Under the pieces are notes generated by a model. That model made no database searches, had not been told where the DNA came from, and saw only the letters and a list, made by a program, of their open reading frames with translations. The translations under genes were made by a program, and so were the position numbers. A DNA stretch of 64,000 nt from a virus: positions 96,001 to 160,000 of the IMG/VR virus record IMGVR_UViG_3300021961_008712. One strand, given 5' to 3'. This document shows positions 3,797 to 18,643 of this stretch, one piece after another; the stretch's first letter is position 1, and every line of letters starts with the position of its first letter.

Positions 3797-3809
3797 CTAT
3801 TTATTATAA

Positions 3810-4331
3810 ATGAAAACAGTTAGAATTAAAAATACCGTCAATTCAGCAGACATGGTTACTCTGCAGATATACCATAGTAGCATTACAGGTAGTAATCTAC
3901 TAACTAGTAGTGTGTCTCAAAGCGGGGTATTTACTGGACAGGATTTATTTAATGGACTGGAGTTTCAAGTAGAAGACAGTATTGATCAATTTTTTGTTAA
4001 GAATCTAACCAGATGTACTAATGTTGGTTCAGGATCACTTTCTGAAAATAGTAATTATGTAGCATATTACACTGTAGACCCAGGTTCTAACGCATCAGTA
4101 CAAATTACAGGAGAAGATTCTAGAACTAGGTCAAGTATTTCTACTACCAGACATAATTTTAGCCTTTATCCTACTCTTACTTTAGAAAGTTTACCAACCT
4201 ACCCGTATGAGTTCGCCGGTTGGTATAATAATTCTAGCTACACTGGAACAAGATTATCCAATTCTAACCCAGTTTCTATCACTTCAGGAAGTTTTAGCGG
4301 GGAAACAAACTGGTATGCAAAAATAGAATAA
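3810..4331 (+). CDS. hypothetical Ser/Thr-rich protein with C-terminal InlB-B-like repeat, possibly virion-associated
   Basis: YEFAGWY...WYAK motif; preceded by a TATTTAT motif. Confidence 0.55.
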   Translation: MKTVRIKNTVNSADMVTLQIYHSSITGSNLLTSSVSQSGVFTGQDLFNGLEFQVEDSIDQFFVKNLTRCTNVGSGSLSENSNYVAYYTVDPGSNASVQITGEDSRTRSSISTTRHNFSLYPTLTLESLPTYPYEFAGWYNNSSYTGTRLSNSNPVSITSGSFSGETNWYAKIE

Positions 4332-4334
4332 TAG

Positions 4335-4364
4335 TTGCTATTCAGTAAATAAATTCGTATATTA
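4335..4364 (+). promoter_or_regulatory. Bacteroidota sigma70-type promoter TTG-N20-TATATTA (representative of ~18 copies)
   Basis: The same motif, mostly with a 20-nt spacer, recurs at 10271, 12795, 15438, 18382, 21231, 25008, 29969, 33349, 33867, 41176, 43684, 49475, 52045, 56058, 60790 and 63303 (TAG variant at 43020). It resembles the -33 TTG / -7 TAnnTTTG consensus. Confidence 0.85.
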
Positions 4365-4800: not shown

Positions 4801-5112
4801 ATGTTACGAAAACCAAACTCAATTCCTGCAAAGGATGTTATTATTAAAGATCCGGCAATGGAACCGTTTTTTATCTCTAGATCTCAAACCGGAGGTTATA
4901 CTGTATTTGAAAATGTTATTAAAGGAGAAAATAATACTGAATATATTAAAACAGTATGTTATCCTTCTAACTTTTCTAATGCATTGAAAGCTGTAGCAAG
5001 AGAGCTACTCAACTACAGTACAGGAAAAGAACAGACAGAGTATACTTTAAAAGAGTATGCAACTAGATGGGAAGAGGTAAATAACTCTATAGCATCTATT
5101 TTTGAACAATAG
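4801..5112 (+). CDS. hypothetical protein
   Basis: Tightly packed ORF. Confidence 0.7.
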   Translation: MLRKPNSIPAKDVIIKDPAMEPFFISRSQTGGYTVFENVIKGENNTEYIKTVCYPSNFSNALKAVARELLNYSTGKEQTEYTLKEYATRWEEVNNSIASIFEQ

Positions 5113-5142
5113 CGTCAGCCTATACGCTTAATAATACCTGGC
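5111..5142 (+). ncRNA. candidate H-type pseudoknot cis-regulatory RNA in the queC leader
   Basis: Stem AGCGT/ACGCT, loop CAGCCTAT, A-rich linker, then CTGGC able to pair with loop GCC or CAG. Confidence 0.45.
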
Positions 5143-5163
5143 AAATATTTAAATTATAAAATT

Positions 5164-5973
5164 ATGGCAAAAAATGTTGTTGTAAGTCTTTCTGGAGGGA
5201 TGGACTCCTCTACTTTACTACTTAGATGTTTATCTGAGTACGACAATGTAACAGCTTTATCTTTTGATTACGGTCAAAAGCATAGAGTAGAACTTGAAAG
5301 AGCTCAATCTTTAGTAGATTATCTAAATGATAATGTCTATTTTAGAAACGGTGATCAGATTAAGTATCAGGTTATTAAATTAGACGGGTTAGTAAATCTT
5401 CTTAACTCTGCTTTAGTAACCGGAGGTGCTGATGTACCAGAAGGACATTATGAGCAAGATAATATGAAAGCTACAGTAGTACCTAACAGAAACAAAATAT
5501 TTGCTTCTTTAGTTCAAGCAGTTGCTTTATCAGCAGCTAATGCTAATGGAAACAATACAGATATTGCATTAGGTATTCATGCTGGTGATCATGCTATCTA
5601 CCCTGACTGCCGTCAAGAGTTTAGAGATGCAGATGATGCTGCTTTTAGAATAGGTAACTGGGATGCTGAAAAGGTAGGTTACTTTACACCTTATTTAGAA
5701 ACTGATAAGTTTGGTATTCTACAAGATGGTGAAAAATTATGTAAGGATTTACAAATAGAATTCGATGAAGTTTACAAACGTACGAATACTTCTTACAAAC
5801 CTTACCCTTCAGGTAACTCGGATTATAAATCTGCTTCTTCCGTAGAACGTATTGAAGCGTTCATTAAGTTAGGTAGAAAAGATCCAGTTCAGTATGAAGA
5901 TGAGACAGGACCTGTGTCTTGGGAAGTAGCTAAGGCTGCAGTTGAAAAGGTATTAACCGATTACGTAGCTTAA
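5164..5973 (+). CDS. queC: 7-cyano-7-deazaguanine (preQ0) synthase
   Basis: SLSGGMDS, FDYGQKH, VPNRN, YPDCR. Confidence 0.95.
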   Translation: MAKNVVVSLSGGMDSSTLLLRCLSEYDNVTALSFDYGQKHRVELERAQSLVDYLNDNVYFRNGDQIKYQVIKLDGLVNLLNSALVTGGADVPEGHYEQDNMKATVVPNRNKIFASLVQAVALSAANANGNNTDIALGIHAGDHAIYPDCRQEFRDADDAAFRIGNWDAEKVGYFTPYLETDKFGILQDGEKLCKDLQIEFDEVYKRTNTSYKPYPSGNSDYKSASSVERIEAFIKLGRKDPVQYEDETGPVSWEVAKAAVEKVLTDYVA

Positions 5974-6053: not shown

Positions 6054-6127
6054 GCCTCCGTAGCTCAGTTGGCTAGAGCAGCTGATTTGTAATCAGCAGG
6101 TCGTGGGTTCGAATCCCTCTGGAGGCT
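6054..6127 (+). tRNA. tRNA-Thr (TGT)
   Basis: Acceptor GCCTCCG/TGGAGGC, D arm GCTC/GAGC, anticodon arm GCTGA-TTTGTAA-TCAGC, T loop TTCGAAT. CCA is not encoded. Confidence 0.96.
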
Positions 6128-6142
6128 CAAAGAGTAAAATAT

Positions 6143-10266: not shown

Positions 10267-10317
10267 AAAGTTGCATATGAAATAAAAAGTTCTTATATTA
10301 TTATAATAGAAGACAAC

Positions 10318-10345
10318 AGTGTCGTAGCACCACTTTAAAAACACA
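10318..10345 (+). ncRNA. preQ1-I-like riboswitch aptamer
   Basis: AGTG-TCGTAGCAC-CACT-TTAAAAACACA, located between the promoter and ATG 10349 at the head of the queD/queE unit. Confidence 0.78.
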
Positions 10346-10348
10346 TTT

Positions 10349-12835: not shown

Positions 12836-12864
12836 ATGTGTCGCAGTACCACTTTAAAAACAAA
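12836..12864 (+). ncRNA. preQ1-I-like riboswitch aptamer upstream of folE
   Basis: (AT)GTG-TCGCAGTAC-CAC(TT)-TAAAAACAAA, after promoter 12795-12824 and before ATG 12871. Confidence 0.72.
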
Positions 12865-12870
12865 AAATTA

Positions 12871-18468: not shown

Positions 18469-18643
18469 ATGTATGGATAAAGAATTTTATTTAGTAAGAA
18501 AAAACGAAAGCAATGCATTTCAAAGATTAATGACGTTCTTTTTAGAACAAAATAAAAAATATGGTGCTGATTTCGGAGTAGCAGGAATGTACAATACTTT
18601 AAATAGGTTTTATGATAAAAAGAATAGCATTAGTAGGGGCTAG
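18461..18643 (+). CDS. hypothetical protein
   Basis: Coupled ORF downstream of an internal promoter at 18382. Confidence 0.5.
   Translation: MIKCMDKEFYLVRKNESNAFQRLMTFFLEQNKKYGADFGVAGMYNTLNRFYDKKNSISRG

Follow-up and report, generated by a model that had tools for sequence, protein, structure and literature searches.

The window analysed here, a stretch of 64,000 nucleotides covering positions 96,001 to 160,000 of the 169,750-bp IMG/VR virus record IMGVR_UViG_3300021961_008712, belongs to a phage whose nearest cultured relative is Flavobacterium phage vB_FspM_immuto (in the following, immuto; queC 72% identical). A small open reading frame and a queC gene succeed each other on its + strand, and at their junction lies an H-type pseudoknot of 32 nt (5111-5142, + strand), which ends 21 nt 5' of the queC ATG. 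The features are the following, with positions given in the window:

4801-5112, + strand: upstream ORF of 103 amino acids, belonging to no Pfam family; its stop codon, TAG at 5110-5112, runs into the first bases of P1
5111-5115, + strand: 5' strand of helix P1, AGCGU, forming 5 bp with ACGCU at 5124-5128; at least 10 covarying helix sequences among phages
5116-5117, + strand: loop 1, CA; in relatives, 1-4 nt of varying sequence
5118-5120, + strand: 5' strand of helix P2, GCC, within the hairpin loop; partner GGC at 5140-5142
5121-5123, + strand: loop 2, UAU; its final U is invariant and adjoins the 3' strand of P1
5124-5128, + strand: 3' strand of P1, ACGCU; partner of 5111-5115
5129-5139, + strand: loop 3, A-rich, UAAUAAUACCU (as DNA, TAATAATACCT); AUAC at 5134-5137 is invariant and followed by a spacer of 0-2 nt
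5140-5142, + strand: 3' strand of P2, GGC; pairs with 5118-5120
5143-5163, + strand: spacer of 21 nt consisting of A and U only, without Shine-Dalgarno sequence and without terminator; presumed ribosome loading zone
5164-5166, + strand: queC start codon ATG, as read in the sequence
5164-5973, + strand: queC, 7-cyano-7-deazaguanine synthase family (PF06508, E 1e-38; PDB 2pg3 QueC, E 4e-18)

Written as DNA, the order is TAG/CGT, CA, GCC, TAT, ACGCT, TAATAATACCT and GGC, then 21 A/U bases and ATG; loop 1, the 5' strand of P2 and loop 2 together make up the hairpin loop CAGCCTAT (5116-5123), and the U-A pair closing P1 (U5115-A5124) is invariant. A preliminary description of this leader had pointed out the AGCGT and ACGCT strands, the 8-nt loop between them, the linker and the 21-nt gap to the queC ATG, all of which lie exactly where it had placed them. 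For the second helix it had left two registers side by side, and one of them survives: GCC:GGC covaries, whereas CAG:CTG is unsupported and was discarded because the sequence of loop 1 varies among relatives (U, UA, CC, UC, AA, CA, UUA, UGAA and others in the parsed queC leaders). The QueC clade concerned is without the C-terminal cysteine cluster (cysteines are found only at residues 22, 148 and 192), carries a C-terminal extension and retains the ATP-binding SGGMDS and YPDCR motifs.

In the window, the closest promoter-like TTCGTATATT box upstream of queC is found at 4354, ahead of three small ORFs, and queC therefore seems to be without a promoter of its own, the pseudoknot being a leader internal to a polycistronic unit. 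The idea that three deazaguanine transcription units each carry an RNA element needs correcting on this point, as queC would not form a separate unit. Allowing one mismatch, the decamer TTCGTATATT occurs at 30 sites in the window against 9 expected, a number reached in none of 100 shuffles (for example, at 4354, 10290, 10500, 12814, 16771, 21250, 29988, 33368, 43039, 49494 and 56077); the copies lie mostly on the + strand, 5' of genes, and probably represent a phage promoter element. In many relatives such a box is located 8-12 nt 5' of the queC pseudoknot. Two further genes of the neighbourhood, a carbamoyltransferase near the deazaguanine cluster (PF02543/PF16861, 6733-8391) and a 2OG-Fe(II) oxygenase inside it (PF13640, 13552-14277), have no obvious role in the pathway.

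Folded as a single sequence, the stretch 5100-5180 reaches a minimum free energy of -6.2 kcal/mol (z = +1.5), and 195 of 200 shuffled sequences fold at least as well; the folding energy is thus unremarkable, and it is because of comparative evidence that the element can be considered real. The queC loci were gathered from IMG/VR with three QueC queries and one DNA pattern, and among the 187 distinct queC leaders obtained from related phage contigs of IMG/VR and from immuto, 157 have the motif. The immuto leader, at about 18556-18610 of MW353175, shows it with G-C replaced by A-U in P1. When 66 distinct cores were aligned with MAFFT, pairing in P1 amounted to 95.7%, and in four of the five pairs both partners had changed; the score for covariation was 0.355 compared with 0.144 after shuffling (0 of 500 shuffles reach the observed value), and partners slid by 1-3 columns score at most 0.07. 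At least ten forms of P1 occur, namely AGCGU/ACGCU, AACGU/ACGUU, AGGAU/AUCCU, CGGAU/AUCCG, UGGAU/AUCCA, AGGUU/AACCU, AGGGU/ACCCU, AGUGU/ACACU, CGGUU/AACCG and others. MAFFT cannot register the variable-length P2, which was analysed by a purpose-built parser. The common form of this helix is GCC/GGC, lengthened to UGCC/GGCA in half of these leaders, and the rarer ones are GACCC/GGGUC, GGCCC/GGGUC, GUUCC/GGAAC, ACUCC/GGAGU, GAGAC/GUCUC, ACCCUC/GAGGGU, GCUAC/GUAGC and UGUGAAU/AUUCACA, so that P2 comprises nine unrelated sequences in all, each still complementary, and can reach 7 bp in relatives compared with 3 bp here. When the loops were shuffled with their composition kept, the probability of an equal or longer helix was 0.005-0.07 per type and about 1e-12 jointly. 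G-U pairs fit the + strand only, and the RNA is therefore read from the queC strand.

The unpaired positions are conserved in a different manner. All 157 parsed leaders have UAU, U, AU or GU as loop 2, the final U, like the U-A closing pair, being a filter of the parser; this U (column T27) is invariant in the MAFFT alignment too, and 63 of the 66 aligned cores have U-A as the closing pair, the remaining three rows being misaligned by MAFFT. Loop 3 is A-rich and 8-15 nt long in the parsed leaders, and the AUAC at its end (A27 T28 A29 C30), which takes the form (A/C)AUAC plus 0-2 bases, does not vary in the MAFFT alignment. The distance from the end of P2 to the AUG amounts to 17-25 nt in 153 of the 157 leaders. 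Covariation among the queC leaders of related phages, on which the preliminary description had staked its proposal, is thus displayed by both P1 and P2, and on comparative sequence evidence the queC-leader pseudoknot is a real, conserved and uncatalogued cis-regulatory element. A promoter or operator acting at the DNA level was ruled out, as compensating changes in two crossing helices, together with G-U pairs on the + strand only, speak for RNA and not DNA. Two other candidates were likewise rejected: a pairing of the loop GCC with the GGC of an AUG-GCA start, given that leaders with AUG-UCU, AUG-AAA and AUG-UUA keep the motif, and a frameshift stimulator, given that the element is intergenic and located upstream, not downstream, of the UUUAAAU-like box.

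Scanning the 169,750-bp phage genome with a covariance model of the motif gave one match (54.9 bits, E 1.6e-13), the next one scoring 14 bits, and a general promoter, terminator or repeat can therefore be ruled out. A pattern for the common form has 120 matches in IMG/VR, 112 of them with P1 pairing; 108 of these 112 clearly precede a QueC-type ORF (two at contig ends, one with a mutated start codon) and four precede a truncated or broken reading frame, while the eight matches without P1 pairing lie in unrelated DNA and are due to chance. Only a single QueC clade of a single phage group, with QueC proteins 68-100% identical, has the motif, and about 16% of the related queC genes are without it; these are packed against an upstream hypothetical ORF, and the hypothetical proteins encoded there give no clue to the regulatory logic. 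Covariance-model scans did not find the motif in 151 Flavobacteriaceae and 151 Bacteroidia genomes, the matches in these 302 genomes being of 24-29 bits only and without the context of a pseudoknot plus queC, and up to now it has been found only in phages. One such weak match (28.6 bits) in a Flavobacteriaceae genome (L372, 1501-1544; G089:C199:6914-6957) reads GGCU UG ACC CAU AGCU AUAAUAAUACAU GGU AAA, with ACC/GGU in place of GCC/GGC; it is situated in an intergenic gap of 570 nt, is followed directly by no ORF and is probably due to chance, but may be a relic. A pattern scan of bacterial contigs was dismissed, the pattern being too loose: its matches, at least 121, are attributable to chance, with neither a U-A-closed P1 nor a queC context among those listed.

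Rfam 15 was compared at three sensitivities, namely with the gathering score, over 20 kb with E<=10 and over the 91-nt stretch 5090-5180 with E<=10; none revealed a relevant match, the preQ1-I model (RF00522) failing each time, and no paper describing this queC-leader element was found in the literature searched. The element nevertheless resembles the preQ1-I riboswitches (for example, those of B. subtilis queC, T. tengcongensis and E. coli) in being an H-type pseudoknot of 30-35 nt with a 5-bp P1, a short P2 and an A-rich loop 3, and in its placement near the start codon, in the 5' leader of queuosine/7-deazaguanine genes including queC; in bacteria, preQ1-I controls queC operons (PMC11625349). 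The preQ1-I family comprises three types with different consensus models, which all have a specificity cytosine adjoining the 3' strand of P1 (as UC in type I and AC in types II and III), a G in the closing pair of P1 (G5), which contacts the 7-aminomethyl group, and U6 in loop 1 and A30 in loop 3, reading the ligand edge (PMC11625349). The phage element, in contrast, has U at the site of the specificity cytosine (66 of 66 cores, and 157 of 157 parsed leaders, in which it was a filter), its closing pair is U-A instead of G-C, and its loop 1 is variable, the first base being mostly U, but also C, A or G. In loop 3, invariant A's are found within AUAC, the invariant motif of the phage tail, where preQ1-I has AAAAAACUA; furthermore, some 20 nt lie between the end of the phage P2 and the AUG, no Shine-Dalgarno sequence is sequestered by this helix, and the element is confined so far to phages. 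Because the specificity cytosine and the closing G-C are absent and loop 1 is variable, the queC element, as far as can be judged from sequence, is built on the preQ1-I architecture but is not a member of that family. The size and H-type topology of preQ1-I combined with a different sequence had been noticed in the preliminary description, and this view is upheld by the covarying P1 and P2, the missing Rfam match and the specificity for queC leaders. The HLout pseudoknots of preQ1-II and preQ1-III (RF01054, RF02680) are more distant, as they span about 80-100 nt, contain P1-P4/P5 and lie upstream of queT transporters, whereas the phage element has 32 nt and two helices, occurs before queC only and matches neither model.

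Two mini preQ1-I-like leaders are present in the same window, at about 10316-10348 (GUGUCGUAGCACCACUUUAAAAACA) and 12837-12870 (GUGUCGCAGUACCACUUUAAAAACA), just 5' of ORF 10349, which heads the queD/queE unit, and of folE, respectively. Both stay below the Rfam thresholds; their P1 covaries (GUG/CAC here, GGAG/CUCC in immuto), and they keep the type II rule of AC before the 3' strand of P1 (GUGUCGCAGUACCAC UUUAAAAACA; consensus GUGUCGYAGYACCAC UUUAAAAACA), whereas the queC element has AU there. Genome, pathway and the layout of a small hairpin with an A-rich tail near the start codon are common to both kinds of leader. In 51 phage records with this QueC clade, we tabulated QueF (by Pfam), the mini leader (scored with two patterns and, in immuto and one relative, by visual inspection) and the queC pseudoknot. 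All three occur in 23 records; one record, a 46-kb fragment, has the mini leader and the pseudoknot without QueF; 16 records have the pseudoknot only; and 11 records, two of which are at least 96% complete, have none of the three. The mini leaders hence track QueF, being found in 23 of 23 QueF-positive records and in 1 of 28 without QueF. In 12 of the 16 pseudoknot-only records folE lies 3-6 kb from queC on the same contig and is without the leader that it has in QueF-positive phages, and in one of these relatives (L027) a cluster in the order pseudoknot-queC-tRNA-ORF-queD-queE-ORF-folE is without any further RNA element.

Within the QueC clade, three groups of gene content can be distinguished: phages with QueF and mini leaders (and, in the 16 records checked, a PurN-like formyltransferase), phages without QueF whose compact queC-queD-queE-folE cluster is headed by the pseudoknot, and phages with neither QueF nor an RNA element, in which queC is translationally coupled to the upstream ORF. 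The PurN-like formyltransferase occurs in exactly the nine QueF-positive of the first 16 records tested, and this variety suggests that sister phages differ in their final DNA modification; DpdA is absent from the table, as a six-frame search with the Pfam TGT family does not detect DpdA3, even in immuto. The 16 records with the pseudoknot, but with neither QueF nor mini leader, argue against phage-made preQ1 as the signal and suggest that the pseudoknot also serves phages not expected to make preQ1, with the reservation that every QueF-negative record with the pseudoknot is at most 73% complete and QueF could lie off-contig. The distribution favours a signal common to both groups of phages, most simply preQ0, the product of QueC, but another intermediate that both have or, equally well, a protein would fit.

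The explanation we consider best, and to which we would assign an even balance of probability, is that of a cis-acting, metabolite-sensing RNA switch in the 5' leader of queC. The queC mRNA would fold into the 32-nt H-type pseudoknot, with the A-rich loop 3 lying along P1; a small molecule would bind at the P1/P2 junction and stabilise the otherwise weak P2; and the folded knot, 17-25 nt away from the AUG, would hinder 30S loading on the A/U-rich leader devoid of a Shine-Dalgarno sequence and so lower QueC synthesis. The signal may be a 7-deazaguanine compound that every one of these phages makes, in the first place preQ0 rather than preQ1, a preQ0-type signal appearing most likely because the pocket differs from the preQ1-I one and the motif also occurs in records without QueF; the replaced contact bases and these records also lend indirect support to the sensing of something other than preQ1. 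The freely varying helices and invariant junction nucleotides are suggestive of a riboswitch-like anatomy, as the U of loop 2, the AUAC and the closing U-A all lie at the P1/P2 junction, where preQ1-I holds its ligand, and the general traits of riboswitches, a structured 5' leader of a gene of one pathway with covarying helices and invariant junction bases, are present. A P2 of 3 bp and a marginal fold are what would be expected if a ligand has to stabilise the knot. Control is most likely translational, because only 17-25 A/U nucleotides lead to the AUG, neither a terminator nor an extra helix is found, and the element is situated inside a polycistronic unit; the host group is not known to rely on Shine-Dalgarno pairing. 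When the leader and the first 30 nt of coding sequence were folded with RNAalifold, no conserved alternative (anti-pseudoknot) helix appeared, and between knot and AUG no terminator, anti-Shine-Dalgarno sequence or other expression platform was found. It should also be noted that several observations speak against a switch: the narrow distribution, in a single QueC clade of a single phage group, could be explained equally well by vertical inheritance or by co-evolution with a protein, a U at the specificity position is not obviously suited to a guanine-like ligand such as preQ0, and the 16% of related queC genes mentioned above manage without the element.

Co-evolution with a protein leads to a reading which we regard as less likely, though as the strongest of the alternatives, and for which the preliminary description had left room, that of a translational operator, in which the knot would be recognised by QueC itself (autogenously) or by a dedicated repressor, and the bound protein would cover the A/U-rich leader and block initiation. 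The model for such an arrangement is the gene 32 operator of phage T4, where a pseudoknot is followed by an unstructured A/U-rich tract up to the initiation site and is bound cooperatively by the single-strand-binding protein which gene 32 encodes. By analogy, an H-type pseudoknot in a phage mRNA leader, followed by about 20 nt of A/U-only single strand up to the AUG, would fit this layout. The restriction to one phage group and one QueC clade, together with the failure to find the motif in the 302 sampled bacterial genomes, would suit co-evolution with a phage protein, and the QueC clade itself is atypical, without the C-terminal cysteine cluster and with a C-terminal extension. The queC knot is, however, smaller and closer to the AUG, and the gene encodes a metabolic enzyme with no known RNA binding; neither QueC nor the neighbouring ORFs have an evident RNA-binding domain, and no candidate partner gene stands out. 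Moreover, the grouping of the invariant bases around the helix junction resembles that of ligand pockets, and a preQ1-I-shaped, pathway-specific element before a single gene is more simply a metabolite sensor.

Improbable, in our opinion, is a structure working without any ligand, be it in 5'-end protection, as a processing site, as insulation of the loading zone or in tuned re-initiation after the upstream ORF. The stop codon overlapping P1 in the window would suit this reading, the knot would come close to the transcript's 5' end in many relatives if the TTCGTATATT box is a promoter, and the lack of an expression platform points in the same direction; but a stabiliser or insulator needs neither an invariant unpaired U and AUAC nor a fixed distance of 17-25 nt to the AUG of one gene, dozens of other genes share the promoter box without a knot while the element occurs once per genome, at queC only, and a P2 of 3 bp would be too weak for a constitutive structure. 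Still less probable appears a very divergent preQ1-I riboswitch, which would continue to sense preQ1 like the two other leaders of the phage. Topology, size, A-rich loop 3 and gene association are all alike, and the family spans three types with different consensus already (PMC11625349), but RF00522 remains silent even at E<=10 on 91 nt, the specificity cytosine and the closing G-C are replaced and loop 1 is variable, the two mini leaders of the very same genome keep the AC rule, and 16 records have the motif where neither QueF nor mini leaders were found.

Returning to the metabolite-sensing switch, a further step, which we put forward only tentatively and as something short of probable, would be to see in it the first riboswitch class known only from viruses, with the shape of preQ1-I and a rebuilt pocket for preQ0 or another 7-deazapurine intermediate instead of preQ1. 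If true, phages that replace all their guanine would exert RNA control by two signals, folE and queD/queE being governed by preQ1-type leaders and queC by a second sensor. Riboswitches have rarely been reported in phages, and in the papers that could be searched we found no phage pathway of DNA hypermodification reported to be controlled at the RNA level. Immuto replaces essentially all guanine with formyl-preQ1 (PMC10516641), and the paper on its DNA modification makes no mention of a riboswitch; from such near-total replacement it follows that the flux through QueC should be very large and carefully matched to replication. As a metabolite-binding RNA, the element would be among the smallest natural aptamers and would represent a natural experiment in re-tuning the preQ1-I scaffold via three pocket positions, of interest for riboswitch evolution, for the engineering of ligand specificity and for small synthetic switches. 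Immuto is in culture and bears the motif, which makes the question directly testable.

Two minor observations concern the surroundings of the element. A tRNA-Thr (anticodon UGU, 6054-6128) is located directly 3' of queC in the window, and a tRNA-like sequence is also found 3' of queC in the relative L027 (about 3800-3890). In the spacer 5143-5163 and its counterparts, UUUAA(A)U recurs 5-8 nt 3' of P2, in the common as well as the divergent types, and could be a ribosome loading signal.
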